Source of the DNA: Solirubrobacteraceae bacterium | Lineage (GTDB): Bacteria > Actinomycetota > Thermoleophilia > Solirubrobacterales > Solirubrobacteraceae | Assembly (NCBI GenBank): GCA_049697735.1 | Contig: JBAVWI010000020.1 | Coordinates: forward strand, 7,174-71,173 | DNA length: 64,000 bases | Reading direction: 5' to 3' | Part shown: positions 26,319-61,698 of the stretch, in pieces | Numbering within the stretch: position 1 is the stretch's first letter | How the letters are laid out: every line of letters starts with the position of its first letter | The notes under the pieces: model-generated | Databases searched by the model: none | Told to the model about the DNA's origin: nothing | Seen by the model: only the letters and a program-made list of their open reading frames with translations | Translations under genes and position numbers: made by a program

Positions 26319-28847
26319 CTAGGCCAGGATCTCGACGTACCCGTCCGTTCCATGCACGCGGATCCGCTGCCCATCCCGGATCAGCTGGGTAGCTTGCTCG
26401 ACCCCGACGACGGCCGGCAAGCCGTACTCCCGCGCGATCACCGCGCCGTGGGTCATCAGGCCCCCCACCTCCGTCACCAGGCCTTCGATCGCGAGGAACA
26501 GGGGCGTCCAGCTGGGGTCCGTGTAGGTGGTGACAAGGATGTCGCCGGCTTCGATGTCGGCCTGTGATACGTCGAGGATGACGCGGGCCCGCCCCTCGAT
26601 GGTCCCGGCCGAGACGGGTAGGCCCACCAGCGCGCCGGCCGGCAAATCGGCGCGTCGGTAGGAGCCGGCGATGACCTCGCCGTCTGAGGTGAGCACGCGG
26701 GGCGGCGTGAGCGCTTGGTAGGACCTGAACGCGTCCTTGCGCTGACGAATCAGCTGCTGGTCCAGCCGGCGGGTGCTCACGACGTCGTGGAGCTCCTGGA
26801 AGGTGAGGTAGAAGATGTCTTCCTCGTCACGAAGCACGTCTGCCTGCACGAGGCGCTCGGCTTCTTCCAGCAACGCCTGCTTGTAGACGAAGTAGCGGCT
26901 GACGATGCCGTACTTCGGGTACTCGCGGTACCCGATGAAGGTCCGGAGCCGGTCGATCATCCCCTTGGCCTGTTCGGCCTTCCTCCCTCCGTCTGCCAAG
27001 GGCCGCAGGCGCTCCAGCAGCTCTTGTTCCTTGCTCCGGGCCGCTTGCCGCCCTTGTTCGAGGCGCCGCTTGGCCTCGCCGGGCGTGAAGTTCCTGATGT
27101 TGTCGAGGATGACGGGCACGAGCGTGGTGGGGCGCTCGCTCCATCGTGGCCTGGTGATGTCGATCTCGCCGGCGCAGCGCATGCCGTACTTGTCGAGGTA
27201 GGCCCGGATGGCGTCCCGGGCTTCCCGGCCGCCCGCGAGCGTGGGCAGTTCGTCCAGGAAGCTCTCATCGTCGACGTGCTGCAGGAAAGCCACCACGTTC
27301 GGATGCGGGCGGATCACGTCCGCGACGTCCAGCAGGGCCAGCCCCATCTCCGACGTGACGTTGCCGGGGGCGGACTGCGTGAGTGTGTCGGCCGCGTTCT
27401 TCTCGCCCAGCCACTCCCGCAACTTGTCGTTAAGCCACCAAGTGGCCTCCATCCCCGCCATGATCGCCTGAGTGCTGAGCGGATCACTGAGGACTCGCTT
27501 GTGCTCCTTGAAGGCCTCCAGCAGAAAGTCGAACAGCGCAGGTCCGGATTTCGTCTGGATGTCGTCCTTCAAGGCGGCGATGGAAGCCTGGCTGCGCTCG
27601 ACCAGCTCGGTGACGATGGCCGGATCGGTGTCGATCTGAGCGGGCGCGCCTCCCACGGGCGGGCCGCCGGGGCGAGCGGGATCCACATCCGGGAGCGAGG
27701 GGAGGAAGTCGCCGCGTTCGAGGATGGTCTGCAGCGCGTCCCCGATCAGCGGATCGCCTCTCCCCATGACCTCTAGGAGACCTTCCCGAGTCGTCGGCGA
27801 AGCCAGTCGTTGGGTGACGTCGACGAACAGCCTGCCACCGGCCTCGTGCATCGGCACCATCGCCGTGAGCTGCCACACGGAGACCCCCAGGGGCCTCATC
27901 GCCTCGGTCATCATCTGCACATGACCGACTGAGACGTACACGTGGTTCTCTCGGTCGGCGGCCTCGGGGATCGGGAACAACGTCGTGATCGGCCGACTCT
28001 GGACGATCCAGAAGTCGCCCTCGGCCAGACACCATTCGATGTCCTGCGGGCAGCCGAAATGCGCTTCGATCCGCCGGCCGAGCTGCACGAGCCGCACGAC
28101 CTGCGCGTCCGTGAGCGCCGGCTGTTGTTGCCGCGCCGACACGACAACCTCGCCGTCTCGCACCGAGAAGGTGTCCGCGTTCACGAGGCCGGAGACAAGC
28201 GCCTCACCGAGGCCGAGGCTCGCTTCCACCGAGGCAACCTTCCGGCTGGAGGTGACGGGGTCGGCCGTGAACAGGATCCCGGCAGCCCGCGGGACGACCA
28301 TCTGCTGCACGACCACGGCCATCTGAACCGTGCCGAGGCCGAAACCGTTGCGTAGGCGGTAGGTCACGGCCCGCTCGCTGAACAGCGAGGCCCAGCACCG
28401 GCTCACGTGCTGGAGGACGGCCCCCGGGCCCACGACGTTCAGGTAGGAGTCGTACTGGCCAGCGAAGGATGCGCTCGGCAGGTCCTCCGCCGTCGCGCTC
28501 GATCGAACGGCGCAGGCCGCCTGCTCGCCGAGCCGGGCCAGCGCACGCGTAATCGCCAATGCCACATCGTCAGGGATCGCGATCCCCTCAACGGCCCGAC
28601 GGATCTCCGCGCTCAGCGCGCGGATCGCCTCCCCATCTTCCGGCTTCAGGCGCGACAGACGATCGAGCCGCTCGTCGATCGACGGCGCTTGCGCCAGGAT
28701 CCGCTGGAAGGCGTCCGTCGTCACGCAGAAGCCAGCCGGCACACGGATGCGTTCGATCCGCGAAAGCTCCCCCAGGTGCGCGCCCTTGCCCCCAACGACC
28801 GCAACCTGGGTGTGGTCGATCTCCTCGAAGTCCAACACGTAGCCCAT
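26319..28847 (-). CDS. PEP-synthase-like phosphotransferase, rifampicin phosphotransferase (RPH) architecture
   Basis: 842 aa from ATG 28847 (GGAGGTGA ribosome-binding site). N-terminal PPDK_N-type ATP-grasp (VGGKGAHLGEL...VRSSATAEDLPSASFAGQ), a long middle region, and a C-terminal swivel domain (TTYTDPSWTPLF...TEVGGLMTHGAVIAREYGLPAVVGV). Confidence 0.8.
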   Translation of the reverse strand: MGYVLDFEEIDHTQVAVVGGKGAHLGELSRIERIRVPAGFCVTTDAFQRILAQAPSIDERLDRLSRLKPEDGEAIRALSAEIRRAVEGIAIPDDVALAITRALARLGEQAACAVRSSATAEDLPSASFAGQYDSYLNVVGPGAVLQHVSRCWASLFSERAVTYRLRNGFGLGTVQMAVVVQQMVVPRAAGILFTADPVTSSRKVASVEASLGLGEALVSGLVNADTFSVRDGEVVVSARQQQPALTDAQVVRLVQLGRRIEAHFGCPQDIEWCLAEGDFWIVQSRPITTLFPIPEAADRENHVYVSVGHVQMMTEAMRPLGVSVWQLTAMVPMHEAGGRLFVDVTQRLASPTTREGLLEVMGRGDPLIGDALQTILERGDFLPSLPDVDPARPGGPPVGGAPAQIDTDPAIVTELVERSQASIAALKDDIQTKSGPALFDFLLEAFKEHKRVLSDPLSTQAIMAGMEATWWLNDKLREWLGEKNAADTLTQSAPGNVTSEMGLALLDVADVIRPHPNVVAFLQHVDDESFLDELPTLAGGREARDAIRAYLDKYGMRCAGEIDITRPRWSERPTTLVPVILDNIRNFTPGEAKRRLEQGRQAARSKEQELLERLRPLADGGRKAEQAKGMIDRLRTFIGYREYPKYGIVSRYFVYKQALLEEAERLVQADVLRDEEDIFYLTFQELHDVVSTRRLDQQLIRQRKDAFRSYQALTPPRVLTSDGEVIAGSYRRADLPAGALVGLPVSAGTIEGRARVILDVSQADIEAGDILVTTYTDPSWTPLFLAIEGLVTEVGGLMTHGAVIAREYGLPAVVGVEQATQLIRDGQRIRVHGTDGYVEILA

Positions 28848-28967
28848 CCGCTCACCTCCCTCGGAGTCGACCTGGTCAACTCCGCTCCTGTTCATTGGTT
28901 CCAGCCTGGGGCGGGCGATTATGGGGCACGAATCTCGGCCTCATGAGAGGCCCCGGCCTGGTATAAA

Positions 28968-33860: not shown

Positions 33861-34160
33861 ATGCCCACCTTCGTCCTTCGCCTCATCGCCCCGCGTCCGA
33901 ACTTCGCCCTGACTCTGACCGAGTCAGAGCGGGAGATAATGAACGCCCACGCCGCCCACTGGCAGCCGTATCTCGAGCGTGGTGACATGGTCGTGTTCGG
34001 CCCAGTGCTTACCGACGAGGACTCCTACGGCCTCGCGGTTGTCGACACGAACGACGAGCAGGCGCTGCGCGAGTTCGCGGCCCAAGACCCGGTCGTGACG
34101 ACCGGAACTGCGGCCTTCGAGCTCGGGCGGCTGGCCGCGGGTCATGTTCGCGGGTCCTGA
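33861..34160 (+). CDS. YciI-like family protein
   Basis: 99 aa. HAAHWQPYLERGDMVVFGPVLTDEDSYGLAVVDTNDEQALREFAAQDPVV. Confidence 0.7.
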   Translation: MPTFVLRLIAPRPNFALTLTESEREIMNAHAAHWQPYLERGDMVVFGPVLTDEDSYGLAVVDTNDEQALREFAAQDPVVTTGTAAFELGRLAAGHVRGS

Positions 34161-34222: not shown

Positions 34223-36367
34223 TCACGGCGAGATCAGCGGGCCAACCGCTGCGGGTCGGCTGGCCGTCTGTGCCAGCTGGAGCCTGGCCGAGGCCACGCG
34301 GTCGAGGGTCACGGCGATGCGGCTCGCGCCAAGGTCGCGCGCGACTCTCAAGTCGTCAGCGTCAAGGCTGGGGACGAGTGCCCAGCGTGCCGGCGGTGAA
34401 TCGATCCCCGGCGCTGGTCGCTGCTCCACGGCCCAAGCGACCATCGCCCCTTCAGGGATTTCGGCGGAGCCCGGTGAGGCCTCCGCGATGACCGGGGTGC
34501 CCGCACCGGCCGCGAGCACCAGCTCGTGAGCCGGGGCGACCTGGGCGGCGGGCACGATCAGATGGGTGAGCCACGCGGGCTGCTGGCGAAGCTGGGTGGC
34601 CAGCCCCGCCATCCACCCCCGATCCGCAGCGCGGGAGAGGTCCAGGGCGGCAACCCAGCCCGCGACGCTCAACTCGCGCCTAACGGACCGGGACGTACCC
34701 ACGCTGGCTGGCCGTGGGGTGTCGGCGTCGGGGAGGGCGTGCGCGGGGCTCAGCTGGAGGATCACGCCGTCGGCACCGGAGGCTGGGGCGAGGTCGATCT
34801 CCGCTACGGAGGTAACCAGGGCGTCGACGGCCAGGTCGCGCAGTTGGTCGGCCCATTCCAGCAGCTCATCGAGGCCCTCCGGTTGACGCGGGGAGAGGAC
34901 CGGGACTGGGCCCAGGATGACCAGTCCGCCATCCCCGTCCACCGAGAGCACGTCGCCCTCGTTGACCGTGACTGCGCCGATGCGAAGGTAACGTCCGAAC
35001 TCGCTGATCTCGATCTCCTCGGCCCCGCAGACGCAGCAGCGTCCGAGCCCACGGGTTACCACGGCGGCATGGCTCGTCTTGCCTCCGCGGGTGGTCAGCA
35101 GGGCCTCCGCGGCGAGGATGCCGTCGAAGTCCTCGGGACGCGTCTCCCGCCGGGCCAAGATCACCGCCTCACCGGCCTCTCGCCGCCCGATCGCGGCGCG
35201 GCTGTCGAAAACCACGGGGCCGGTGACCAGTCCGGGCGAGGCCCCGATGCCGGTGGTCAGCACCCGGTGAGGATCGAGCCGATCGAGATCCAGATGCGGG
35301 CGAAGCTCATCCTCCAGCGCCCGGGCGTCGACGCGGGCGATCGCCTCGGACGCGTCGATCACGCCATCGCGGGCGAGCTCGAAGGCGATACGGACTGCGG
35401 CAGGCGCCGAGCGTTGGCCGATTCGAGTCTGGAGGATCCACAGCTCGCCTCGCTCGACGGTGAACTCGATCTCGCACATATCGCGGTAGTGGGCCTCGAT
35501 CGCCCGGGCGGTCGCGGTCAGCTCGGCGTGCGCGTCCGGAACCAGCCGGGACATCTCCCCGAGATCGGCGGCATTGTGGGTTCCGGCCACGATGTCCTCC
35601 CCTTGGGCGTCGGCAAGGTAGTCGCCGAACAGCTCGGGCGCCCCGGTCGACGGATTCCTGGTGAAGAGGACACCAGTCCCTGACCGCGGTCCCGCGTTGC
35701 CGAACACCATGGCCTGGACGACCACCGCCGTGCCCGTGTCGGCGAGCTTGCGAAACCGGCGATAGGCCCGGGCCCGAGGACTGTTCCAGCTCTCGATAAC
35801 GGCGGCCACGGACTGCCTGAGCTGTACCCAGGGGTCGTCGGGAAACGGCTCGCCAGTGGCCTTCGCGTAGGCCTCGAGCCGCACGGCGACTGTCTGCTCA
35901 GGATCATCGGACGCCTGAAGCTGCTCGGTCGAGAGTCCCCGGACCGTGGTCCCGAAGCTATGGATGAGGCGCGCGTAGCAGTCCTGGGCCAGGGAGGGGC
36001 TGCCGAACTGACGCGCCAGGCCGGCCACGGTGGTCGGTCCGACGCCGACGTTGAGGATCGTGTCCATCATTCCGGGCATCGAAGTCGGCGCGCCGGAGCG
36101 GACGCTGACCAGCAGGGGCTGCTGGGGGTCGCCGAAAGCTCGCCCCAGCACCGCACCGACCCCGGTCAGGGCGAATCTGATCTCATCCATGAGCCCGCCG
36201 GGAATCTCACCGCTCGCGGCGTAGGCACGTGAGGCGGCGGTGGTGACCACGAAGCCGGGAGGCACCGCGACCCCGAGCCTGGTCAGCTCGCCGAGGTGGG
36301 CTCCCTTCCCGCCCAGCAGCGCGGTGGCCTCGCGGCCCCCCTCGTGGAAGCCGACTACGTAGCCCAT
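34223..36367 (-). CDS. pyruvate,phosphate dikinase-like protein: intact ATP-grasp and phosphohistidine swivel domains, truncated/degenerate C-terminal domain
   Basis: 714 aa from ATG 36367. PPDK signatures run up to the swivel His: LLGGKGAHLGEL, LLVSVRSGAPTSMPGMMDTILNVG, RNPSTGAPELFGDYLADAQGEDIVAG, DMCEIEFTVERGELWILQTR, TTRGGKTSHAAVVTRGLGRCCV. After LDELLEWADQLRDLAV only ~215 aa remain, and I see no CRTEHMF-type motif. Confidence 0.8.
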   Translation of the reverse strand: MGYVVGFHEGGREATALLGGKGAHLGELTRLGVAVPPGFVVTTAASRAYAASGEIPGGLMDEIRFALTGVGAVLGRAFGDPQQPLLVSVRSGAPTSMPGMMDTILNVGVGPTTVAGLARQFGSPSLAQDCYARLIHSFGTTVRGLSTEQLQASDDPEQTVAVRLEAYAKATGEPFPDDPWVQLRQSVAAVIESWNSPRARAYRRFRKLADTGTAVVVQAMVFGNAGPRSGTGVLFTRNPSTGAPELFGDYLADAQGEDIVAGTHNAADLGEMSRLVPDAHAELTATARAIEAHYRDMCEIEFTVERGELWILQTRIGQRSAPAAVRIAFELARDGVIDASEAIARVDARALEDELRPHLDLDRLDPHRVLTTGIGASPGLVTGPVVFDSRAAIGRREAGEAVILARRETRPEDFDGILAAEALLTTRGGKTSHAAVVTRGLGRCCVCGAEEIEISEFGRYLRIGAVTVNEGDVLSVDGDGGLVILGPVPVLSPRQPEGLDELLEWADQLRDLAVDALVTSVAEIDLAPASGADGVILQLSPAHALPDADTPRPASVGTSRSVRRELSVAGWVAALDLSRAADRGWMAGLATQLRQQPAWLTHLIVPAAQVAPAHELVLAAGAGTPVIAEASPGSAEIPEGAMVAWAVEQRPAPGIDSPPARWALVPSLDADDLRVARDLGASRIAVTLDRVASARLQLAQTASRPAAVGPLISP

Positions 36368-36419
36368 AGGGGGCAAGTGTGACCGCAAACCAAGCCCGAC
36401 ACAGAACCTAGCCTACCAC

Positions 36420-36431
36420 CCAACCGGTTGG
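36420..36431. promoter_or_regulatory. operator-like palindrome CCAACCGGTTGG (site 1)
   Basis: Perfect 12-bp palindrome in the divergent gap between the PPDK-like gene and hyuA. Flanks are CCTACCAC...TAGG. Confidence 0.6.
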
Positions 36432-36511
36432 TAGGGAGCCTCGGAACCAGCCTGCAGCTACGGTTCCGGCTTGAGTTGACATGGAAGATCACCGCCTCTA
36501 GGATGAGCCTC

Positions 36512-36523
36512 CCAACTGGTTGG
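36512..36523. promoter_or_regulatory. operator-like palindrome CCAACTGGTTGG (site 2)
   Basis: Same gap, about 75 nt before GTG 36599. Followed by TTGGG. Confidence 0.6.
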
Positions 36524-36598
36524 TTGGGACTCGAGTGAGAGGGATTAGGCACGCGCTCTCGTAGGGCCTGCCGCTGACCCGAAGGGAGCTGGTTAAGC

Positions 36599-38704
36599 GT
36601 GAGCTACATCTGCGGCATCGATGTCGGCGGGACGTTCACGGACTGCGTGGTGGTCGGCGCAGACGGCACGGTGACGGTGGCGAAGTCCTCGTCGACTCCG
36701 GGGGACTTCTCGCGAGGCATTTTTGACGTGCTCGGCGTCGCCGCCGGGCAGCTCGGCCTCGAGGAGAGCGAGTTTTTGGGAAGCATCACGGCCCTGTTTC
36801 ACGGCACGACGGTGGCCACCAACGCGATGGTGGAGCGCAAGGGCGTCGACTCGGCGATGTTGGTCACCCGAGGTCACCGCGATGTCCTCAGCATCATGCG
36901 AGGCGCTGGCCGCACCGCAGGGCTCGCGCCTGAGCAATACCTGCAGGTCTCGGTGGCCAACAAGCCGGCGCCGATCGTGCCGCGCAAGCGGATCGGTGAG
37001 ATTGCCGAACGAGTCGACGCCAAGGGTCAGGTGGTGGTCGAGCTCGACGAGGAGTCGGCGCGAGCGACGGTGCGCCACCTGCTCGGGCTCGGAGTACGGA
37101 GCATCGGCGTCTGCCTATTGTGGTCCTTTCAGAACGCGGGCCACGAGGAACGCCTCAAGGAGATCATCCTCGAAGAGGCCGGCGGTGACACGTACGTCAC
37201 GCTGTCCTCGGAGCTGATCCCCAAGTGGGGGGAGTACGAGCGAGCCGTCGGGACGGCCATCAATGGCTACATCGGGCCGCTCGTGCGCGATTACCTCTCG
37301 GATCTCCGCGAGCGTGGCACCGAGCTGGGGATGAACGGCCGAATCCTCATCATGCAGGCCAGTGGAGGCCTGGCCGAGGCGGCACGCATTGTCGACGTGG
37401 CGGTTCAGACCATCGGCTCCGGCCCGGTGGCTGGGGTCACCGGCTCTAGCCGGTTCGGGGACGAGATGGGAACGCCGAACGTGATCTGCACCGACATGGG
37501 CGGTACCACGTTTGACGTCGGGCTGGTCGTCGACGGGCGGCCGGTCCGCCGAGCGTCGAGCATCGTCAGCCAGTATGAGTACGCCCTGCCCCAGGTCGAC
37601 GTGCGGTCGGTCGGCGCCGGGGGCGGGAGCATCGCCTGGATCGATTCCGTGTCCAAAGCCCTGCGTGTCGGTCCCCAGAGCGCGGGCGCCGCACCGGGGC
37701 CGGCCGCCTACGGACAGGGTGGCCTCGAGCCGACCGTCACCGACGCCGACCTGATCCTCGGCTACATCGACCCCAACAGCTTCCTGGGCGGCAACATGAA
37801 GCTCGATCGTCAACTGGCCGAGGCGGCCCTGGACCGGGTCGCCGAGCCTCTCGGCCTCGGCCGGTCGGAGCTGGCGGCCGGGATTGTGCAGATCGTCGAG
37901 ACTCAGATGGCCGAGCTGATCCGCCAGATGACAGTGCAGAGCGGGTATGACCCGCGCGACTTCGTCGTCTATGCCTACGGTGGTGCCGGCCCCACCCACG
38001 GGGTCGGCTACGCGGCCGAACTCGGTGCGCGCTCGGTGGTGGTTCCCCTGCTCGATCTGGGGGCGGTCTGGTCGGCCTTCGGGGTGGCGGCCAGCGACCT
38101 GGTCGAGCTTGTGGAGTCAACCGACATCATGCGCCAGCCGTTCGATCTCGAGCGGCTGAACAACTCGCTGAGCGGGTTGGAGAGCACCGCGCGCGAGCGG
38201 CTGGTGTCCCAGGGGGTGGCCGCCGAGGACGTCGAGGTGACCCGTCGGGCGTTCCTGCGCTACACGGCCCAGATCCACGAGGTCGATGTCCTGGTCGGGT
38301 CCGGCCCGGTGGACGAAGCTTCGGCGGCACAGCTGGTGGCGGAGTTTCAGGAGCGCTACGAGCAGCTGTTCGGCAAGGGCTCAGGGTTCGCCGGGGCCGG
38401 CATCGAGCTGGTCAGCGTCAGCGCCGAGGGTCGCGGACGCCTTGAGTCCCAGCGCCAGGTCGCCGAGCACGTGACGCACCGGGCCACCGGTACCGGGCAG
38501 ACAAGAGAGCTCGCGGCCCGGGAGGTCTACTGGCCGCGAGAAGGAGTGCGCATGACCACCAGCGTGTTCGACGGTGCATCACTTCGCCCCGGGGACCAGA
38601 TGTCAGGCCCCGCAATCGCCGAGCTTCCGCACACGACGATCGTCATCCCGCCCGGCTACACGGCCGTGATCGACGAATTCGGCGATTGCGTGATCGAGCT
38701 CTGA
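36599..38704 (+). CDS. hydantoinase A / oxoprolinase / acetone-carboxylase-beta family ATPase subunit
   Basis: 701 aa. MSYICGIDVGGTFTD, TTVATNAMVERKG, MGGTTFDVGLV, GPQSAGAAPGPAAYGQGG, and other actin-fold hydantoinase_A signatures. Confidence 0.9.
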   Translation: MSYICGIDVGGTFTDCVVVGADGTVTVAKSSSTPGDFSRGIFDVLGVAAGQLGLEESEFLGSITALFHGTTVATNAMVERKGVDSAMLVTRGHRDVLSIMRGAGRTAGLAPEQYLQVSVANKPAPIVPRKRIGEIAERVDAKGQVVVELDEESARATVRHLLGLGVRSIGVCLLWSFQNAGHEERLKEIILEEAGGDTYVTLSSELIPKWGEYERAVGTAINGYIGPLVRDYLSDLRERGTELGMNGRILIMQASGGLAEAARIVDVAVQTIGSGPVAGVTGSSRFGDEMGTPNVICTDMGGTTFDVGLVVDGRPVRRASSIVSQYEYALPQVDVRSVGAGGGSIAWIDSVSKALRVGPQSAGAAPGPAAYGQGGLEPTVTDADLILGYIDPNSFLGGNMKLDRQLAEAALDRVAEPLGLGRSELAAGIVQIVETQMAELIRQMTVQSGYDPRDFVVYAYGGAGPTHGVGYAAELGARSVVVPLLDLGAVWSAFGVAASDLVELVESTDIMRQPFDLERLNNSLSGLESTARERLVSQGVAAEDVEVTRRAFLRYTAQIHEVDVLVGSGPVDEASAAQLVAEFQERYEQLFGKGSGFAGAGIELVSVSAEGRGRLESQRQVAEHVTHRATGTGQTRELAAREVYWPREGVRMTTSVFDGASLRPGDQMSGPAIAELPHTTIVIPPGYTAVIDEFGDCVIEL

Positions 38705-38728
38705 GCGCCGAGACCAACCAGGAGAGAC

Positions 38729-41062
38729 ATGGCCACACTTGAGAACAACGTAATCGCCGAGAACTGGAACGAGGCCAGCGACGGTTACCTGGCGCCGCAA
38801 CGGATCAGCACCACGGCACCCCTGCACACGGAGTCCAAGCTCGATATTGACCCCATCTCCTATGAGGTCATCCGTCACGCGCTCTGGAACATCAACATCG
38901 AGCACGGCGAGACGATCCTCAAGGTTTCCGGATCGCCGATCGCGCTCTACTCGCATGACTTCAACCCGGCGATCACCGCCGAGGACGGAGAGCTCGTGTA
39001 CTTCGGGCAGTACGTGCAGCATCTCTGCGCGGGTGCGCCGGCCGGAGTGAAGTGGACGCTCGAGTACCGCGATGTCAACCCCGGCATTGCCGACGGCGAC
39101 ATCTTCCTGACCAACGATCCGTGGATCTCCTGTAACCATCAGCAGGACATCGTTCTGCTCAAGCCAGTCTTCTGGGAGGGAGCGATCTTCGCCTGGGTGA
39201 CGAGCACGCTGCACCACTACGACCTGGGCGGGACGACGCCAGGGAGCTTCTGCCCCGATGCCAAGGACATCTACTACGAGCCGTCCCCAATCCCGCCGAT
39301 CAAGATCGTCGAGGGCAACGTCATCAGGATCGACGTCGAGGACATGGTCCTGCGCAAGTCCCGGCTGCCCGACCTGGTCAAGCTCGATCTACACGCGATG
39401 ATCGCGGGCTGCAACGTCGCCGAGCGGCGCATGCACGGGTTGTGCGAGAAGTACGAACCCGCGGTCGTCAAGGGGGCAATGAAGAAGATCAGTGACAACT
39501 CCGAGCAGGTCTTCCTGGCTCGGCTTCGCGATATCCCGGACGGCGTCTGGCGCGACCGCACCTACCTGGAGATGGCCCTGCCTGGCGACCGCGAGATCTA
39601 CAAGTTCGAGCTCTCGGTGACCAAGGAAGGTGACACGCTGACCTTCCGCAACGAGGGCACCGATCCCCAGTACGGCGCGATCAACAGCACTATCGTGGGC
39701 TTCCGCGGCTCGATCATGACCGGCCTGATCGGCGCCTTCCTCCACGATCAGCTGTTCGCTTACGGCGGCCCCATGCGCCACATCAAGTTCGAGCCGACGC
39801 CGGGCACGCTGACGTGCGCCCGCTATCCCGCCGCCGTCACCTGTGCCCCGAACACCGGCATGCTTGTCGTACTCTCGCAGGCCAACGCGGTGATCTCCAA
39901 GATGATCTCCTGCTCGGCTAACGAGGCGGATCGCCGCGAAGCGACAGCGAAGTTCGGCGGCAGCCAGTTCCCGATTCTCTCGCTGGCCGGGACCGACCAG
40001 TGGGGTGGCCAGTTCGCCACCGTGCTGTTGGACCCGATGATGTCCGGGATCGGCGCCTTCAGCCACCGCGATGGCGTCTCCACCGGCGGGTACCCATTTG
40101 ACCCCAAGGCGATCGCCCCCAATGTCGAGTTCAACGAACAGTTCTTTCCCATCCTCTACCTCCATCGGACCGAGCTGGCGGACTCGGCCGGACCCGGTCG
40201 CTTCCGGGGCGGCGCCAGCGCTTCGTGGGCGGTGGTCCCCCATGGGACCGAGGAGATCAACCTGGCCACCTCCGCCTCGGGCGTGTGGGTGCCGACCGGC
40301 AACGGCATGTGGGGTGGCGGTACCGCCACCACCAACCGCTTCCGTATCAAGTCGAACACGGACCTCGAGGAGCGCTTCGCGGCCCGCGAGGTCCCGCAGT
40401 TCGACGAGCTGGCGGGCGACACGCGTTACATCGAGCCCAAGGAGACGGGAACCGTCCAGCATCGCGGTGACGTGCTCGAGATCCAGTATCCGGCCGCCGG
40501 CGGATGGGGCGATCCGTTTGAACGTGAGCCGAGCCGGGTTGCGGCCGACGTCGAGGAAGGATTCGTGAGCGTGGAGGGCGCGCGCCGCGACTATGGCGTG
40601 GTGGTGACCGACGACGGCGACGAGGTGAGCGTGGATGCAACCGAGACCGAGCGGGTCCGGTTGGCGGAGACCGATCGCCGGCGCAGGGAAGCGCGGCCCG
40701 CGGTGCCCAGTGAGAACACACGGGTCCCCCGCGGCTCGGGTCGGATGGGACTCGGCGACGCGGTCACCTTGGAGCTCGCCGACGGACACGCCACCTTCCG
40801 CTGCGCGCACTGTGACGCTGAGCTGGGGGTCGACCCGCCTGACTACAAGACGGGCGCCGTGGTCATGGATCGTCCGCTGACCGAGCGCGTTCCCGGCTTT
40901 GTGCCCGGCGACAGCGAAGCCGCCAATCAGCTCGTACATCGCGAGCACTACTGCCCGTCCTGCCTGGTCAGACTCGACGCCGAGGTGGTCCGACAGGACG
41001 AGGCTTCGCTCGTCGACGTCGAGATCTGGGCTCCGCCGGCCTCGATCTGGGAGCAGGCTTGA
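38729..41062 (+). CDS. hydantoinase B / oxoprolinase / acetone-carboxylase-alpha family subunit with C-terminal four-Cys (zinc-ribbon-like) extension
   Basis: 777 aa. DPISYEVIRHALWNI, DGDIFLTNDPW...HQQDI, GPGRFRGG, GGWGDPFEREPSRVAADVEEGFVSVEGARRDYGVV. A ~110-aa tail follows, with CAHC (from 40802) and YCPSC (Cys from 40952). Confidence 0.88.
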   Translation: MATLENNVIAENWNEASDGYLAPQRISTTAPLHTESKLDIDPISYEVIRHALWNINIEHGETILKVSGSPIALYSHDFNPAITAEDGELVYFGQYVQHLCAGAPAGVKWTLEYRDVNPGIADGDIFLTNDPWISCNHQQDIVLLKPVFWEGAIFAWVTSTLHHYDLGGTTPGSFCPDAKDIYYEPSPIPPIKIVEGNVIRIDVEDMVLRKSRLPDLVKLDLHAMIAGCNVAERRMHGLCEKYEPAVVKGAMKKISDNSEQVFLARLRDIPDGVWRDRTYLEMALPGDREIYKFELSVTKEGDTLTFRNEGTDPQYGAINSTIVGFRGSIMTGLIGAFLHDQLFAYGGPMRHIKFEPTPGTLTCARYPAAVTCAPNTGMLVVLSQANAVISKMISCSANEADRREATAKFGGSQFPILSLAGTDQWGGQFATVLLDPMMSGIGAFSHRDGVSTGGYPFDPKAIAPNVEFNEQFFPILYLHRTELADSAGPGRFRGGASASWAVVPHGTEEINLATSASGVWVPTGNGMWGGGTATTNRFRIKSNTDLEERFAAREVPQFDELAGDTRYIEPKETGTVQHRGDVLEIQYPAAGGWGDPFEREPSRVAADVEEGFVSVEGARRDYGVVVTDDGDEVSVDATETERVRLAETDRRRREARPAVPSENTRVPRGSGRMGLGDAVTLELADGHATFRCAHCDAELGVDPPDYKTGAVVMDRPLTERVPGFVPGDSEAANQLVHREHYCPSCLVRLDAEVVRQDEASLVDVEIWAPPASIWEQA

Positions 41063-41073
41063 GCGCCTCTCCG

Positions 41074-41406
41074 ATGAGCATCGTTGGACGCGGCACGTTG
41101 GTGTCCGGCGATGGGTTCGAGGGTCGCCTCGTTCGCGCCGACGACGTTGACGCCGTACTCGATCTCCTCGGCCAGGACCTGGGCGAGGCGGTTCTGCTCA
41201 CTGACCAGGCTTCGGCGACAGCGGTGGCACCGCTGTTGACCAGCCTGGCCGGCGTGGTCTGCACCCAGGGTGGTCACACCGCCCACCTGGCGATCGTCTC
41301 GCGGGCCCTGGGCCTGCCGTGTCTGATGGGGGCCATCTTTGAAGCCGAGGCGCAGCCCGGGGCGCGAGTTCGGGTCACCGATGACGGGGCGGTCCACTCC
41401 GGATGA
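41074..41406 (+). CDS. free-standing PEP-utilizer mobile ('swivel') phosphohistidine domain protein
   Basis: 110 aa (115 if TTG 41059, which overlaps the hyuB stop). GRLVRADDVD...AVLLTDQASATAVAPLLTSLAGVVCTQGGHTAHLAIVSRALGLPCLMGA aligns by eye with the GGxT(S/A)HAAI(V/L)xRxxGxP swivel motif, including the His. Confidence 0.75.
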   Translation: MSIVGRGTLVSGDGFEGRLVRADDVDAVLDLLGQDLGEAVLLTDQASATAVAPLLTSLAGVVCTQGGHTAHLAIVSRALGLPCLMGAIFEAEAQPGARVRVTDDGAVHSG

Positions 41407-42539
41407 GGGCGCTGCTGGATCCACAGGCTGTCATCGCGCGCTTTGGAGCGGACCTGTCCGGAACGATCCGGCGGGAGCGACGCACGGCGATGAAGTCTCC
41501 GCTGTTCGATCTTCCCGGACGCTCCTCGCTCGGGTTCGCGGTCACCTATGCGGTGGCTCCCGAGTTCATCGAGCGCCTCGAGACCGAGCTGACCGGGGCC
41601 GAGGCCGGCGCCCTGATGCGAGAGCCGCTGTCGCGTCCTTACTTCCTGCAACTTTTCATTCTCGTCGAGGGATACCTAGCCGGCCGCGAGCAGATCCTGC
41701 TTGACACCGGCGGAGCGTTTCGGACCCCGGCGGAGGCCGGTAGTGATCGGGAACGGACCGCGCGTGTGGTCTCGTGGTTCGCCGAGGCTTGCGAGGCCTA
41801 TCGCCAGGATGGGGAGCTGTTCCCCGGTGACGATGTACTTGGCCAGCCGGTGCTCTCCGAGCCGCAGCTCCAGAGTCTGCTTGAGGCGTCGGCGGTCGCG
41901 GCCTCGGACGCCGAGCGCGTGCGCAAGGCATTCGGACAATTGGAGCTGTATGCCATCACGCTGCACGGGGAGCAGCGCGACGGCATCTTTGACCACGGTC
42001 CCTACCGGGACAAGGTCCGCACCCTGGCCGTCCACGAGGTCAACGATCTCGACAACGACTATCTGCCATGGGCTGACGCGGAGACTCAGCTCGGCGTCGA
42101 TGCGGTCGGTGTTGTGCGGGCTTACCCCCCGGCGGTGGCGATGCGCTTTGACCTGTTCGGGACCATGAGTCCGGACCCGGTCACGGCCACCGGCCGGGAT
42201 CTCGCGCTGTGCAAACGCGACCGGGACGGTCTCGCGCCGCTAGACCTCAACGAGCTCGAAGCCCTGGCCGAGCGCGCGCAGCTGGCCACCACGATCCTGT
42301 ATCGCCGGTTCGCGGGCTGGGATCCCGCCTACCGCATCCGGTACGGGGCCGGTCAATTCCTCAACCATCTCGTGCCCTTTGCCCGCCTGGCGAGTAGCCC
42401 CGGACTCGAGTCCTGGCTTACTGCAGCCGGCGACGCGGCCGCCGAGGCTGAGATGCCCCGGCTTCAGCCTGGACAGCCGCGATCGATCTGGTCTCATTTC
42501 GCCACCACCGATCGCATCTTTACGCCGGTGGCCGAGTGA
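41403..42539 (+). CDS. hypothetical protein, no recognised domain
   Basis: 378-aa ORF. ATGA overlap with the swivel-domain stop, and its own stop overlaps the next start (TGATG). Good coding bias by eye. Confidence 0.6.
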   Translation: MRALLDPQAVIARFGADLSGTIRRERRTAMKSPLFDLPGRSSLGFAVTYAVAPEFIERLETELTGAEAGALMREPLSRPYFLQLFILVEGYLAGREQILLDTGGAFRTPAEAGSDRERTARVVSWFAEACEAYRQDGELFPGDDVLGQPVLSEPQLQSLLEASAVAASDAERVRKAFGQLELYAITLHGEQRDGIFDHGPYRDKVRTLAVHEVNDLDNDYLPWADAETQLGVDAVGVVRAYPPAVAMRFDLFGTMSPDPVTATGRDLALCKRDRDGLAPLDLNELEALAERAQLATTILYRRFAGWDPAYRIRYGAGQFLNHLVPFARLASSPGLESWLTAAGDAAAEAEMPRLQPGQPRSIWSHFATTDRIFTPVAE

Positions 42540-44629
42540 TGTCAGCGGCCACGGTCGAGTCCACCGCGGGCCTGCGCGCGCTACTCGAGCCTGGCGGCGT
42601 GGTCGTCATCGGGGCGTCAAACCGCGAGAGTAACCTGGGACTGCGCTTTACCCGGGGGCTCCAGCGCCACGGCTATGCGGGACCGGTTTCGGTGGTCAAC
42701 CGGCGCGCCGAGCCCGTTGACGGCATCCCGGGATACGAGTCACTGGAGCAGGTGCCGGGTACCGTCGACTTGGCGGTGATCGCGGTGAACGCGGGTGCGG
42801 TCGCCGAGGCCATCGATGCCTGCGGGGCGCGCGGGATTCGCGCCGCGATCGTCTTCACCTCCGGGTTCGGGGAAGTCGGCGGCGAGGGGATGATTCGCCA
42901 ACGGGAGATCGCCGCCCGAGCCCGGGTGGCCGGGGTCCGTCTGATGGGGCCGAACTGTGTGGGTTTTGTCAACGTTCCCAAACGCGTGTGCGCGATCGCC
43001 TCGGGCTTTGCCTTTCGCTCCGAGCTGCTTGCCGGGAGCTTGTCGGTCATCACCCAGAGCGGGGGCGTGGCCGGCCTGATCGGCGAGCGGGCGCAGGACG
43101 TCGGCATCGGGCTGTCGCACGTCATCTCGACCGGTAATGAGGCCGACGTCACCGCCGGAGAGCTGGTCGACTACCTCGTGGCCGAGGGGTCCACCCGGTC
43201 GCTGGCCTTGTACCTCGAGGCCGTCCGTGAGCCCCAGCGGCTCGGCGAGGCGCTCGTCCGGGCTCGGACGGCGGGCATCGGGGTGGCCATCTTCAAGGCC
43301 GGGGCGGGTGAGCGCACGGCGGCTGCCGCGGCTGCGCATACCGGGTCGGTGGTCGGTGATGACGCCGGCTTCGAGGCCTTCTGCCGGCAGGTCGGGGCTG
43401 TGCGGGTGCACGACCTTGACCATCTCTTTCTGGTCGCGCCGGTGATCGCTGCCCTGGACACTGCTGGGTCTCGGGTTGGGGTGCTGTCGATCTCCGGCGG
43501 GGCCGCGGTGGCCGTCGCCGACGCCTGTGAGCGCTGCGGCTTGGAGCTGCCGCCACTCTCCGAGGTAACCCAAGCGGGCGTTGGCGAGATGGTGCCGGGT
43601 TTTGCCTCCCGGCAGAACCCGGTCGACATCAGCGGGACCTTTGTCGTCGACATGCCCCAGTTCCAGCGCTCGTTGGAGATCCTCACCGGTGCCCCTGAAT
43701 TCGATGCCGTCGTCCTCGTCCAGACCGTCCATCCCGAGTCATTGGCGAATCGAGTCGCCGAGGTCATCATCGGCGGGGCCGACCCGACTCGGACCTCGAT
43801 CATGTGGGCGGCCGGGAACCAGACGCGCGCCGCCCGGCGCCGACTGCGCGAGGCCGGCTTCGGCGTTAGCGAAAGCCCGACAGCGTGCGCCATGGCCGTA
43901 GCCGCCGCCACCACGTCGCGGCGGCTCGAACCACCCGCCCTTGCTTGGCCCGAGTCTGGTGGCGCTACACCCGGGTGCGCCTCCGAGGCCCTCGAGTTGC
44001 TGGCCGCCCATTCAGTCCCGGTGGCACCGATGGAAGTCGTGACCACTGCCGCTGAGGCGAGCGCAGCGGCCGAGCGGTTGGGCTTTCCCGTTGTCGCCAA
44101 GGCTGATTTGAGCTCACTGGCGCACAAGAGCGAGCACGGTGGGGTCAAGCTCGGATTACGAGACGGCCGCGCGGTGCAAGCCGCCTTCGCCGAGCTCGAC
44201 GCTCGAGGCCTGGCCGGGGACGGAGTGCTGGTTCAGAAGGCGGTTTTGGGTAGCCGGGAACTCCTGGTTACAGCGGTTGTCGATCCCGTGTTCGGCCTCG
44301 CCCTGGCAGTCGGCTTCGGTGGGGTCCTGACCGAGGCCATCGGCCGGGGTGCGCTGCTGCTCCCGCCGCTCACCCCCAGCGGTCTTGCCGCGGCGCTGGA
44401 CAGTGCCGGGCTGACTCGCCTCGTGGGGTCATTCCGAGGGGCGGCGGCGATCGATCTCGGCCAGTTGCTGGCCCTCGGCGGGGGGCTGCTCGAGGCAGCC
44501 GCCCAGCTTGGCGGCCTGCGCCATCTGGAGCTCAACCCGGTGATCGTGGGCGATGACGGAAGCGTGTGCGCGGTCGATGCGCTGATCGATACCAACGTCG
44601 AAATGAGGCCCGATGCTCCAAGCGGTTGA
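42539..44629 (+). CDS. ADP-forming acyl-CoA synthetase (fused CoA-binding / succinyl-CoA-synthetase-like / ATP-grasp; acetate--CoA ligase ADP-forming family)
   Basis: VVVIGASNRESNLG, VNRRAEPVDGIPGY, DLAVIAV, MGPNCVGFVN, AAAAHTGSVVGDD (phosphohistidine loop), plus a C-terminal ATP-grasp (GFPVVAKADL...GGVKLGL). Confidence 0.85.
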   Translation: MSAATVESTAGLRALLEPGGVVVIGASNRESNLGLRFTRGLQRHGYAGPVSVVNRRAEPVDGIPGYESLEQVPGTVDLAVIAVNAGAVAEAIDACGARGIRAAIVFTSGFGEVGGEGMIRQREIAARARVAGVRLMGPNCVGFVNVPKRVCAIASGFAFRSELLAGSLSVITQSGGVAGLIGERAQDVGIGLSHVISTGNEADVTAGELVDYLVAEGSTRSLALYLEAVREPQRLGEALVRARTAGIGVAIFKAGAGERTAAAAAAHTGSVVGDDAGFEAFCRQVGAVRVHDLDHLFLVAPVIAALDTAGSRVGVLSISGGAAVAVADACERCGLELPPLSEVTQAGVGEMVPGFASRQNPVDISGTFVVDMPQFQRSLEILTGAPEFDAVVLVQTVHPESLANRVAEVIIGGADPTRTSIMWAAGNQTRAARRRLREAGFGVSESPTACAMAVAAATTSRRLEPPALAWPESGGATPGCASEALELLAAHSVPVAPMEVVTTAAEASAAAERLGFPVVAKADLSSLAHKSEHGGVKLGLRDGRAVQAAFAELDARGLAGDGVLVQKAVLGSRELLVTAVVDPVFGLALAVGFGGVLTEAIGRGALLLPPLTPSGLAAALDSAGLTRLVGSFRGAAAIDLGQLLALGGGLLEAAAQLGGLRHLELNPVIVGDDGSVCAVDALIDTNVEMRPDAPSG

Positions 44630-45656
44630 CGATTACCCCTTTCATCAGAGTGCCCAGACGTTTGACACTCCGACGACAGACGATGTGCGGTGGTTTGACC
44701 GGTACTGGTTCATGACCGGGGACGTCGAGCAGCGGGTGTGTGTCATCACCGGCATCGGCACCTATCCCAACGCGCGCCGGATCGACGCTTACGCGATGGT
44801 TGGTGACGGCGAGCACCAGTGGAACTTGCGCGTAGGCCGCGAGCGCAGCCGGGACCCGCTTGATCTCAGTAGCCACGGGCTGCGCTTTGAGCTGGCCGAC
44901 GCGATGAGCAAATGGCGCCTGGACTGTGATGGCCTCGACGAGTTCGGCTTCAGCCTCGAGTTCGATCAGCGCTACCCGCCGAACAACCTGCCGGCCCTGT
45001 TCGTGGAGCGGGCTGGTCAGGTGATCATGGAGATGGGCCACTTTGCCCAGGGCGGTGGAATGCGTGGAGATCTCCGCCTCGGGGAGCGCAAGTTCCGCGT
45101 CGATGGCTGGCCATCGCAGCGAGATCACTCGTGGGGTCGCCGACCGCCGTCGGGCAAGGTCCGCAGCGGCATCCACGTCTGGCTGCCGGCCCAGGTCGGC
45201 GATCGAGAGATCTGGCTGTGGTTTCGCGAGAACGCGAGCGGCGAGCGCAAGGGCCTGGAGGGCCTCGTGCGCTCGCGCGACGGACACTCGTGGGTGATCG
45301 AGGACGTCGAGCATGACATCGAGGTCAAGGAAGAGGTCGCCCCACACCGGCAGCTGGTTCGAGCCCGGCTCGACCTACGTTTGAGCGACGGGCAGCGGCT
45401 TCATGTGGAGGTCGAGCCCCTAGTCCCGATCTTCATCGCCGGCGGTGGTTACGTGGACGGTGCCGAGGCTCAGGGAACCTTCGAGGGCCAGAAGGTGCAG
45501 CGCTGGTCTATCGCTGACAATGGACGCGCGGAGATCCCCAACACGATCATCGATCACTTCTCCCGGGTCACGGTTGACGGGGAGCCCGGTCAGGGCGTAT
45601 TCGAGCTCTCGCTGGGCCGATACGAGCCGCTCGGCCTGGGCGACCTGCCGGGGTAG
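44613..45656 (+). CDS. conserved hypothetical protein (paralogue of 58459-59496)
   Basis: 347 aa. Shares MxxxxDDYxFHQ and VDGWPSQRDHSWG with the other copy (IDGVPGHRDRSWG). Overlaps the upstream gene by 17 nt. Confidence 0.7.
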   Translation: MLQAVDDYPFHQSAQTFDTPTTDDVRWFDRYWFMTGDVEQRVCVITGIGTYPNARRIDAYAMVGDGEHQWNLRVGRERSRDPLDLSSHGLRFELADAMSKWRLDCDGLDEFGFSLEFDQRYPPNNLPALFVERAGQVIMEMGHFAQGGGMRGDLRLGERKFRVDGWPSQRDHSWGRRPPSGKVRSGIHVWLPAQVGDREIWLWFRENASGERKGLEGLVRSRDGHSWVIEDVEHDIEVKEEVAPHRQLVRARLDLRLSDGQRLHVEVEPLVPIFIAGGGYVDGAEAQGTFEGQKVQRWSIADNGRAEIPNTIIDHFSRVTVDGEPGQGVFELSLGRYEPLGLGDLPG

Positions 45657-45664
45657 TCAGGGCC

Positions 45665-46258
45665 ATGGCACCGACCCTGGAAGCGGAATTCCGCGTTCTG
45701 CACTCTCTTCGCATCAAGGGGGCAGCGTCCGCCGACGCGGTAGCGCGCTTGGCGGGCGACGCCGAGGTAACCGATGAGCTCGCCGTGCTGGAGCAGGAGG
45801 GGTGGGTCCTACGCCGCTCCACCACCTCGACTCTGGTCTTCGCCCTGACCGCGAGTGGACGTGAACGTCATGGCCAGCTATTGGCCGGCGAGGGCGATGA
45901 TTCAAGCCGGGCGGTTCTCGCTGCCGCCTATGACGGCGCCTTCCGGCCGCTGAACCGGACCTTCAAGGCCCTGTGCCTACGCTGGCAGCAGGCCGACGAG
46001 CACTTCGAACTCCTCGAAGAGGTCATCAGCACTCATGACCAGATCGATGCCTTCCTGGCCGACGCTGCTGAGCAGCGGCTGCGCTTCAGCGTCTACCGCG
46101 TGCGGCTGGACGCACTGGTCGAGCGGGTCCAGGACGGCGACACGGAAGCCTACGTGGCCCCGCTTGGTGAGTCCTACCACAACGCCTGGTTTGAGCTCCA
46201 TGAGGACCTGATCATCACCCTCGGACGCAGCCGGGCCGAAGAGGAGAACGCGGCGTGA
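45665..46258 (+). CDS. hypothetical protein with possible N-terminal winged-helix region
   Basis: 197 aa. LHSLRIKGAASADAVARLAGDAEVTDELAVLEQEGWVLRR...ALTASGRERHGQLL looks MarR/wHTH-like. The remainder is helical and unassigned. Confidence 0.5.
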   Translation: MAPTLEAEFRVLHSLRIKGAASADAVARLAGDAEVTDELAVLEQEGWVLRRSTTSTLVFALTASGRERHGQLLAGEGDDSSRAVLAAAYDGAFRPLNRTFKALCLRWQQADEHFELLEEVISTHDQIDAFLADAAEQRLRFSVYRVRLDALVERVQDGDTEAYVAPLGESYHNAWFELHEDLIITLGRSRAEEENAA

Positions 46259-49966: not shown

Positions 49967-49968
49967 CC

Positions 49969-50616
49969 TTGGCCAGCGCGGCGTCAAAGGGCAAGCCTGC
50001 CGCCAGGCGGCCGATGTCGCCCCGCCGCCGGGAGGTTCTCGATGAGGCCGCCCGGCTTTTTCACGAGCGGGGTTACATGGGTACGAGCATGGACGACATC
50101 GCCGATGCCGTCGGTCTAACCAAGGGCACGCTCTATCACCACTTCCCGAGCAAGGCGGTGATTCTCGGGGAGATCTACGAAGAGGCGGTCAGCTTCGTAC
50201 TCGCGCACATGTCAGAGCTCGAGCAGCAGGGATCGGCGACCGCCGCGGTGCGCTCCATAGTCAGGGCGATCGTCGAGCTGATCGGCGAGCATCGCTATCA
50301 CGTCACGGTCTTCTACCAGGAGATGCGCTGGATCGGCGAGTGGCTTCCGGCCAAGGACGCCCGGGCCATTCGCAAGCAGATCCGGGAGTACATCGACAGC
50401 GTGGAGAGGGTGATCCAGCGCGGCATCGACGAGGGGGACTTCCGGCCCACCGACGCTTCGGTGGCCGCCTATGCACTGATCGGCATGGCCTCCTGGACGT
50501 ATCAGTGGTTTGAGCCGAGCCGACGTCTGTCGGCCGAGGCGGTCAGCGAGCTGCTGTCGCAAACCTTCCTGGAGGGGCTCGTCGTCCCGGCCGGACGCGG
50601 TCCGGCCAAGGGCTGA
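49969..50616 (+). CDS. TetR/AcrR family transcriptional regulator (candidate regulator of the supercluster)
   Basis: VLDEAARLFHERGYMGTSMDDIADAVGLTKGTLYHHFPSKAVIL. Starts 2 nt after the preceding stop, so it is co-transcribed. Start may be ATG 50014. Confidence 0.88.
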   Translation: MASAASKGKPAARRPMSPRRREVLDEAARLFHERGYMGTSMDDIADAVGLTKGTLYHHFPSKAVILGEIYEEAVSFVLAHMSELEQQGSATAAVRSIVRAIVELIGEHRYHVTVFYQEMRWIGEWLPAKDARAIRKQIREYIDSVERVIQRGIDEGDFRPTDASVAAYALIGMASWTYQWFEPSRRLSAEAVSELLSQTFLEGLVVPAGRGPAKG

Positions 50617-50624
50617 GCCGCCGC

Positions 50625-51227: not shown

Positions 51228-51236
51228 TGTAACCTA

Positions 51237-51248
51237 CCAACTGGTTGG
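51237..51248. promoter_or_regulatory. operator-like palindrome CCAACTGGTTGG (site 4)
   Basis: Fills the centre of the 24-bp gap between divergent start codons 51227 (-) and 51252 (+). Context is AACCTACCAACTGGTTGGTTGATG. Confidence 0.6.
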
Positions 51249-51251
51249 TTG

Positions 51252-58453: not shown

Positions 58454-58458
58454 CCGCC

Positions 58459-60433: not shown

Positions 60434-60460
60434 CCGGCTCGCGATTCGTCCCGACGTAAA

Positions 60461-60490
60461 GAGGGCCGCCGGCTTGCGCCGACGGCCCTC
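60461..60490. terminator. GC hairpin between convergent genes (candidate bidirectional terminator)
   Basis: GAGGGCCGCCGGC-ttgc-GCCGACGGCCCTC: 13-bp stem with one mismatch, preceded by TAAA. Lies between stop 60433 (+) and stop 60523 (-). Confidence 0.55.
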
Positions 60491-60522
60491 GGTGGGCTGC
60501 TCTGCCTATCGACGCAGGAGTG

Positions 60523-61629: not shown

Positions 61630-61682
61630 CCTCTCTCTCCTTTGTCCCGGGCCCGTTCGGACCAATTCCGAAGTCGACCCAA

Positions 61683-61698
61683 CCAACTCGTCGGTTGG
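61683..61698. promoter_or_regulatory. operator-like site, wide-spaced variant CCAAC-TCGTCG-GTTGG (site 6)
   Basis: In the divergent gap between the SBP gene and hyuA2. The spacer resembles that of the site at 46305. Confidence 0.45.

Follow-up and report, generated by a model that had tools for sequence, protein, structure and literature searches.

A PPDK-like protein with a vestigial barrel and its candidate phosphotransfer partners in a bacterial catabolic island

Truncated descendants of pyruvate phosphate dikinase (PPDK) have been known as histidine autokinases since 2026 only, through VadK (Rv1127c) of Mycobacterium tuberculosis, which is required for the virulence of this species (Pascoe et al., EMBO Rep 2026, PMC13400623). 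VadK lacks the barrel and carries no PPDK flux; with ATP and Mg it autophosphorylates on His422, the equivalent of the PPDK swivel histidine, and its operonic partner Rv1126c co-purifies with it (PMC13400623). It also interacts with methylcitrate-cycle enzymes, and regulation of enzymes through such interaction was proposed (PMC13400623). A second described group comprises the two-component dikinases HpeHI, PpsAB and CreHI and the single-chain rifampin phosphotransferase RPH, in which a swivel histidine is charged by an ATP-grasp domain and then carries the phosphate to a substrate-binding domain apart from it (Dexter et al., JBC 2025, PMC12167813). Here we analyse a PPDK-like gene found in 64,000 nucleotides of a Solirubrobacteraceae bacterium (assembly GCA_049697735.1, contig JBAVWI010000020.1, positions 7,174 to 71,173; this whole stretch is called the window below, and all coordinates refer to it).

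The protein of this soil bacterium keeps the ATP-grasp and swivel domains of PPDK and ends in a remnant of the phosphoenolpyruvate (PEP)/pyruvate barrel. Its gene is divergent from an operon that encodes, among others, a stand-alone swivel protein, a 378-residue protein (unk378), a 197-residue protein (unk197) and a DUF7065/DUF7064 protein. We read it as a VadK-type PPDK descendant that would act as the ATP-driven phosphodonor of a multi-protein phosphotransfer module in a catabolic island, and give this reading a probability of about 0.55. The initial annotation of this DNA had proposed a protein that phosphorylates its own histidine from ATP, makes no use of pyruvate or PEP and serves some other acceptor; that proposal appears supported, and it fits all the evidence given here. 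The gene and the parts of its product are the following.

34223..36367, reverse strand: PPDK-like coding sequence, 714 residues, ATG at 36367, stop within the coordinates
35348..36367, reverse strand: ATP-grasp nucleotide-binding domain, residues 1-340 (PF01326; predicted with pLDDT >90)
34907..35272, reverse strand: swivel phospho-histidine domain, residues 366-487 (PF00391; match to PDB 2fm4)
34748..34900, reverse strand: linker helix and first beta-alpha-beta unit of the former barrel, residues 490-540 (hhalign; confidently modelled)
34364..34747, reverse strand: degenerate, Ala/Pro-rich tail interior, residues 541-668 (composition; mostly low model confidence)
34259..34363, reverse strand: terminal beta-alpha element, residues 669-703 (hhalign; kept in all tail-bearing relatives)

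With VadK the window protein shares an ATP-grasp domain along with the PPDK-derived swivel histidine, as well as the lack of a working PEP/pyruvate domain. In a neighbour-joining tree built on residues 3-488, from which Rv1127c itself is absent, it falls together with the other tail-bearing forms inside a clade of 470-507-residue proteins of VadK architecture, apart from the full-length PPDKs; its identity is 54-61% to these short forms versus 39-44% to full-length PPDKs. However, VadK (490 residues) ends after the swivel domain, whereas the window protein keeps a barrel vestige of 225 residues. The genetic context differs as well: instead of methylcitrate-cycle genes, the window holds a catabolic island of hydantoinase and CoA-ligase type together with the swivel protein and unk378, and no prpC/prpD-type gene was found among the open reading frames (ORFs) scanned across the 64 kb. 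The family model NF004531 (PRK05878) is passed by the window protein (481.6 against a cutoff of 456) and by the M. avium plasmid form (867.6), but this score is not diagnostic, since a genuine PPDK passes as well (569.7).

The nucleotide and histidine sites of the protein are intact. All N-terminal and central PPDK motifs quoted by the initial annotation are present: SVRSGAPTSMPGMMDTILNVG at residues 88-108, a motif of the NAQGEDIVAG type that here reads DAQGEDIVAG (253-262), and GGKTSHAAVV (428-437); further on, LDELLEWADQLRDLAV...GADGVILQ occupies residues 499-538. In an alignment of 94 PPDK-family sequences, K21, R90, E301, Q313 and R315 stand in invariant or nearly invariant columns, while T431, S432 and H433 are invariant; the codon of His433 (GGKTSH433AAVV) lies at 35069-35071. 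Over residues 3-537 the protein is 40-43% identical to PPDK (EC 2.7.9.1; Clostridium symbiosum 1KBL, maize 1VBG), and the first two domains have the same fold (template modelling score 0.71 against 1kbl when normalised to the length of the query), with nucleotide site and TSH motif matching. The AlphaFold2 (AF2) model has a mean predicted local distance difference test (pLDDT) score of 84.5; it is confident for residues 1-543 and 660-707 and low between them. On these grounds, autophosphorylation on His433 would be expected. The longest ORF of the gene starts at an alternative TTG (36388) and would yield 721 residues.

Beyond the swivel domain the protein departs from PPDK. Pfam recognises PPDK_N (PF01326, 139 bits) and PEP-utilizers (PF00391, 64.5 bits) only, with no match to PEP-utilizers_C (PF02896) even at E<=1. 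Against TIGR01828, the PPDK equivalog, the protein reaches 577 bits, under the cutoff of 843.45, and a bona fide PPDK (P0046) reaches 1447.8. The hidden Markov model of the PPDK C-domain gives a sub-threshold 11 bits, and the tails go unscored by this model. Alignments to every solved PPDK stop at query residue 535-537, and Foldseek superposes the AF2 model on C. symbiosum 1kbl over only ~563 columns. The initial annotation had described a degenerate, shortened barrel and suggested such a superposition as a check; the profile searches, the alignments and the superposition all bear this out. Past the shared first strands, the barrel of PPDK counts ~340 residues and that of the window protein ~175.

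The nature of the tail became visible by aligning a profile of the five tails to one of 51 genuine PPDK barrels in the local mode of hhalign, the only informative one (global mode gave a meaningless, stretched alignment). Two matches were obtained, in the correct order: the first 50 tail residues correspond to barrel positions 2-51 (E 7.5e-8), and the last ~34 (DLRVARDLGASRIAVTLDRVASARLQLAQTA) to positions 337-370 of 384 (E 2e-4). The final strand-helix reads ...RVASARLQLAQ in the window protein and ...RVPLARLAAAQ in PPDK. Because the last ~34 residues match the end of the barrel, the domain seems to have collapsed internally rather than to have been cut at its C-terminus: the linker helix, the first beta-alpha-beta unit and the last beta-alpha unit survive, and ~130 degenerate residues occupy the place of ~285 residues of barrel interior. 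The initial annotation was therefore right about a reduced barrel and wrong in finding no later barrel motifs. Judged by these alignments, the barrel reads as non-catalytic, eroded from inside, with both ends retained; the role of the ends is probably that of a structural base or interface, not a catalytic one.

The catalytic interior between them is degenerate, either deleted or drifted into an Ala/Pro-rich stretch that seems largely disordered. Cys, Asn, Lys, Phe and Tyr are all absent from residues 541-714, where Ala makes up 22% and Pro 10%, and pLDDT drops below 50 at residues 544-582, 609-642 and 646-653. No homologue of the tail alone (residues 490-714) was found among 5.8e9 proteins, nor of residues 541-714 by phmmer among 1.84e9 representative proteins. 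Its composition is nonetheless that of coding DNA, with an in-frame GC content at third codon positions (GC3) of 0.82. On a contig from a variant strain, seven of the nine substitutions in the terminal element are at third codon positions, and a +1/-1 indel pair compensates within two codons, so that at least the end of the tail is under purifying selection; in the N-terminal part, third positions account for 20 of 26 strain-level differences. Contigs of low identity aligned to the tail interior gave short spurious matches only.

Counting the residues after the swivel histidine gives a graded series: 430-441 in PPDK, 281 in the window protein, 266, 263, 257 and 220 in its metagenomic relatives, 147 in a Rhodococcus plasmid form, 124 in a Mycobacterium avium plasmid form and 78-85 in the short forms. 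The mini-tails of the two plasmid forms still show the motifs of the linker and first strand and of the last strand-helix. In this natural series (430, 281, 220, 147, 124, 78) the first strand and the last strand-helix vanish last, and it offers a clear example of how a catalytic domain is taken apart as the remainder of a multidomain enzyme is put to new use. Tail-bearing forms are scattered within the short-form clade, and the tail was probably lost repeatedly. The initial annotation had suggested a search for orthologues of the same short length: four relatives of 646-694 residues have the same architecture as the window protein, yet a tail-less orthologue of 507 residues (locus L006) exists in the same operon context. 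Since L006 shares that context, the tail interior is dispensable. In a strain 92-98% identical to that of the window (L012), the copy is cut at residue 454 and has no tail.

Some further matches had to be discarded. A match on a Streptomyces plasmid (L095) is a full-length PPDK, and one on an Embleya plasmid (L096) appears to be, as seen by tblastn only. A scan of metagenome contigs with the clade alignment picked up generic PPDK peptides; the 80 loci that it returned hold ordinary PPDKs and none of the operon genes.

The partners with which the protein would work are encoded, for the most part, in the divergent operon.

36599..41062, forward strand: Hydantoinase_A (701 residues) and Hydantoinase_B (777 residues), divergent from the PPDK-like gene (family searches)
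41059..41406, forward strand: stand-alone swivel (PEP-utilizers) protein, 115 residues (110 from the ATG at 41074), motif GGHTAH76LAIVSRALGLPC
41403..42539, forward strand: unk378, 378 residues, its start overlapping the stop of the swivel protein
42536..44629, forward strand: NDP-forming acyl-CoA synthetase with CoA-binding, succinyl-CoA-ligase-like and ATP-grasp_5 domains
44613..45656, forward strand: DUF7065/DUF7064 protein (Rv3169 family), a conserved member of the module
45665..46258, forward strand: unk197, 197-residue partner with the C-terminal motif SYHNAWFELHED

After unk197, the operon continues with a glyoxalase-type epimerase-like protein, an amine-oxidase-type flavoprotein and CoA-transferases. 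The operon order is common to L001, L003 and L006, whose PPDK-like proteins are ~50-55% identical to that of the window; it also occurs in L012 and in L005, a contig without a PPDK-like gene. Two short-form loci (L009 and L010) hold subsets of the operon genes. The stand-alone swivel protein keeps its position in seven loci (L001, L003, L005, L006, L007, L008 and L012), and in 11 of the 12 contexts examined the PPDK-like gene has a swivel-domain or PEP-utilizers gene no farther than 10 kb away.

The same partners recur on plasmids of cultured actinobacteria, the carriers of the module including Rhodococcus and Mycobacterium strains. Plasmid pR8L1 of Rhodococcus sp. 008 has the five-gene module in one operon: homologues of unk378 (383 residues) and unk197 (198 residues), a PEP-utilizing enzyme (122 residues), a DUF7065 protein (362 residues) and a short PPDK (527 residues). 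On plasmid pA of R. pyridinivorans P23, swivel and unk378-like parts are fused into one protein of 577 residues, and an unk197-like gene overlaps a PPDK-like gene of 579 residues with a mini-tail, followed by biotin-carboxylase genes. Plasmid pROB02 of R. opacus B4 carries a 793-residue fusion of swivel, unk378-like and unk197-like parts, adjoining an NDP-forming CoA ligase and a DUF7064-like gene. In M. avium pP7a, a PPDK-like gene of 542 residues overlaps that of a 201-residue unk197 homologue; this mirrors the Rv1127c-Rv1126c pair in arrangement. Members of the unk197 family adjoin, overlap or are fused to PPDK-like or swivel genes at L009-L011, L093, L094, L097 and L098. Synteny and fusions tie the swivel protein, unk378 and unk197 to each other and to PPDK-like genes. 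Within the pA locus (L093, NZ_CP113799.1, 370529-386076) we further observed three PEP-utilizing/unk378-like pairs or fusions before the PPDK-like gene, and genes for a biotin carboxyl carrier, a biotin carboxylase and a carboxyltransferase directly after it, a dikinase-plus-carboxylase layout as in the Hpe pathway.

The unk378 family is rare (35 proteins in 5.8e9, all annotated as hypothetical), has no Pfam or NCBIfam match and in every case comes with a swivel-histidine domain, either coupled or fused. Its AF2 model, computed on an alignment of database homologues, is of high confidence (pLDDT 94.6, predicted template modelling score 0.93), with the conserved motif HGEQRDGxFDHGPY. A fold search of the PDB with this model found no match (best E 0.08, template modelling score <=0.15), and a sequence search of the PDB was also empty, as it was for unk197.

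As far as literature searches show, the class of truncated PPDK-derived histidine autokinases is already known, while the vestigial-barrel intermediates, the graded loss series and the conserved partner module, with its stand-alone swivel domain and a protein whose predicted fold has no match, are undescribed. The fusion-linked set of free swivel histidine, unk378 and a ~200-residue partner arranged like Rv1126c with VadK supplies concrete candidates for the destination of the phosphate.

We now propose how such a module could operate. ATP, with Mg, would phosphorylate His433 of the PPDK-like protein; the phosphoryl group could not pass to pyruvate and would be handed on within the module of the divergent operon. 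The likeliest recipient is His76 in the stand-alone swivel protein, a plausible phospho-acceptor or carrier. Alternatively, the ATP-grasp domain could charge the swivel protein directly in trans, as in PpsAB and HpeHI. From there the phosphate may pass to whatever substrate or protein the translationally coupled unk378 binds, with unk197 and the DUF7065/DUF7064 protein as partners. The module would serve a catabolic island under TetR-type regulation, which includes an ATP-dependent enzyme of the hydantoinase type, CoA ligase and transferases, a monooxygenase and an ABC transporter. Domain content, barrel-residue loss, relationships, synteny and fusions have been demonstrated above; autophosphorylation, acceptor and pathway are inferred.

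By analogy, the window system may work like the two-component dikinases without being a member of their family. In both cases the components are split over polypeptides and encoded in catabolic clusters, some beside carboxylases, and HpeI (9goj) gives a weak match of sequence and fold to the PPDK-like protein. In contrast to HpeHI, PpsAB and CreHI, however, the ATP-grasp protein of the window is PPDK-derived and carries a swivel domain of its own, unk378, the putative substrate-binding partner, resembles in fold neither the RIF-binding domain of RPH nor any PDB entry, and the module has the extra partners unk197 and DUF7065/DUF7064. In the PEP-dependent phosphotransferase system (PTS), the PEP-utilizers swivel histidine of Enzyme I passes its phosphate to HPr, a small separate carrier. 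Our proposal likewise has a swivel histidine serving a small separate carrier, but the donor would be ATP and not PEP, the carrier would be a PF00391 swivel domain and not an HPr fold, and the window contains no PTS components. In a bolder version, which we put forward tentatively and at somewhat less than even odds, the PPDK-like protein, the 115-residue swivel protein, unk378, unk197 and the DUF7065/DUF7064 protein together would form an undescribed multi-component ATP-dependent phosphotransfer enzyme that phosphorylates a catabolic intermediate on catabolic islands and plasmids of actinobacteria, its TIM barrel replaced in trans by a carrier-served new substrate-binding protein; VadK/Rv1126c would then be a reduced derivative of it.

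Other explanations concern the state of the gene itself. That it encodes a genuine PPDK, with a barrel mis-read through a frameshift or assembly error or an unusual barrel still converting pyruvate/PEP, is suggested by the recognisable start and end of the barrel. Yet contigs that show 0 differences and 0 gaps against the gene come from two independent runs on soil metagenomes (one contig carries it whole in X1; in X2 the greater part of the gene and of its tail is covered), and since the two samples agree without indels, the sequence is not an assembly artefact; four relatives, moreover, have the same architecture. A convergent YCII gene (33861-34160) starts 62 nt past the stop, and when the PPDK C-domain profile was run over all six frames of the entire window, no hidden barrel came up, the one hit being the 11-bit match to the PPDK-like ORF itself. 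The possibility of a mis-set stop or missed frameshift, which the initial annotation had itself raised, is in this way disposed of. Nor would the remaining barrel be expected to catalyse. The barrel catalytic residues of C. symbiosum PPDK, which we take to be Arg561, Arg617, Glu745, Asn768, Asp769 and Cys831, are absent or unalignable: the position of Arg561 is Leu539 here and non-Arg in all four relatives, the others fall in the unalignable tail interior, which offers neither Cys nor Asn for Cys831 and Asn768, and ~155 residues are missing. Together with the grouping among the short forms, this supports the claim of the initial annotation that pyruvate and PEP cannot be used, and the genuine-PPDK explanation, already largely refuted, has a negligible chance of being correct. 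Almost as little can be said for a decaying PPDK relic without present function, an idea that the degenerate C-terminal domain and the missed equivalog cutoff would invite: all catalytic residues of the N-terminal and swivel domains are conserved, synteny is kept across relatives only 50-59% identical, and 20 of the 26 N-terminal strain differences fall at third codon positions. We hold it to be highly improbable. A tail turned into a new domain that still binds a ligand or partner essential for activity, for instance for dimerisation or for docking the swivel domain or unk197, and hence no vestige, would explain why the reading frame is kept up to the conserved terminal beta-alpha element in five diverged lineages and in the mini-tails, why that element is under purifying selection and why GC3 is coding-like throughout. 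It accords poorly, however, with the tail-less orthologue in the same operon context (L006), with an interior identity between relatives of ~28-38% and large indels, and with the fact that about half of the tail has pLDDT <50 and no homologue appears in protein searches; we judge it improbable.

The main rival to a phosphodonor concerns function. The protein could be a purely regulatory, VadK-like kinase that autophosphorylates and then controls enzymes of the adjacent pathway (hydantoinase-type enzyme, CoA ligase) by binding or protein phosphorylation, with no small molecule phosphorylated at all. This is the model proposed for VadK and the methylcitrate-cycle enzymes in M. tuberculosis (PMC13400623); the PPDK-like gene stands divergent from the operon and not inside it, and some records annotate unk197 homologues as MarR-like. 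On the other hand, the fusion of swivel, unk378 and unk197 parts in Rhodococcus resembles an enzyme with a carrier domain (cf. HpeH and RPH), and the module accompanies different pathways on catabolic plasmids. We consider this regulatory role rather unlikely. Several points nevertheless weigh against the phosphodonor reading that we prefer. To our knowledge, a transfer from histidine to histidine between two swivel domains is without precedent. In the short-form locus L011, no swivel gene lies closer than 10 kb to the PPDK-like gene, and conversely the swivel/unk378 pair occurs with no PPDK-like gene within 10 kb in L008 and in R. opacus L098; in the latter, the NDP-forming acyl-CoA synthetase could be an alternative donor. 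The conservation of its ends indicates that the tail is not wholly functionless, and the regulation by interaction proposed for VadK differs from the feeding of a small-molecule dikinase.

As the initial annotation had stated, the PPDK-like gene shares an operator-containing divergent promoter with the hydantoinase operon. This promoter spans 231 bp and contains two copies of a 22-nt palindrome, which we could confirm and find kept in relatives.

36416..36437, no strand: operator-like palindrome CCACCCAACCGGTTGGTAGGGA in the divergent promoter
36508..36529, no strand: second palindrome copy CCTCCCAACTGGTTGGTTGGGA, 92 nt from the first
49969..50616, forward strand: TetR-family regulator (TetR_N and TetR_C_24); L010 and L011 have a TetR of this type

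At <=1 mismatch, the core CCAACNGGTTGG has 16 strand-matches in the window versus 0.7 expected, and five relatives (L002, L003, L004, L009 and L012) carry it a short way upstream of their PPDK-like gene. It stands at promoter-like positions at 36420, 36512, 51237, 52069, 55794, 56423, 61731, 61787 and 62077; this recurrence from 36 to 62 kb suggests one regulon over the whole catabolic island. The TetR protein is the obvious candidate for its regulator and a putative binder of the palindromes.

The hydantoinase pair is nearest to, and equally distant from, the subunits of caprolactamase and acetophenone carboxylase, and scores below every cutoff. Hydantoinase_B (38729-41062, forward strand) ends in ~180 residues with two CxxC pairs (FRCAHCD ... 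HYCPSCL) that look like a zinc ribbon. Further along the island, four successive CoA-transferase pairs occupy 48234-55703, with the TetR gene and a luciferase-like monooxygenase (51249-52349) between them, and a sugar-type ABC transporter with an APH-family kinase follows downstream (56918-61686). Genes of these kinds are also found beside the PPDK-like gene in L002, L010 and L011.

Among database entries, P0076 (736 residues, labelled PPDK) turned out to be frameshifted: after GAEGIGL it continues in a nonsense frame rich in Pro, Arg and Ser, with no barrel match, a caution that some PPDK-like entries of intermediate length are artefacts. The window encodes a second protein with PPDK_N and PEP-utilizers domains (26319-28895, reverse strand, 858 residues); it is likely a rifamycin resistance gene, as it exceeds the RPH equivalog cutoff with 1518 bits against 999. 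Finally, three genes for ECF-type sigma factors, unrelated to the PPDK-like locus, lie within 6 kb of each other (19456-20409, 22058-23023 and 24171-25052), the last of them fused to a SnoaL-like domain.

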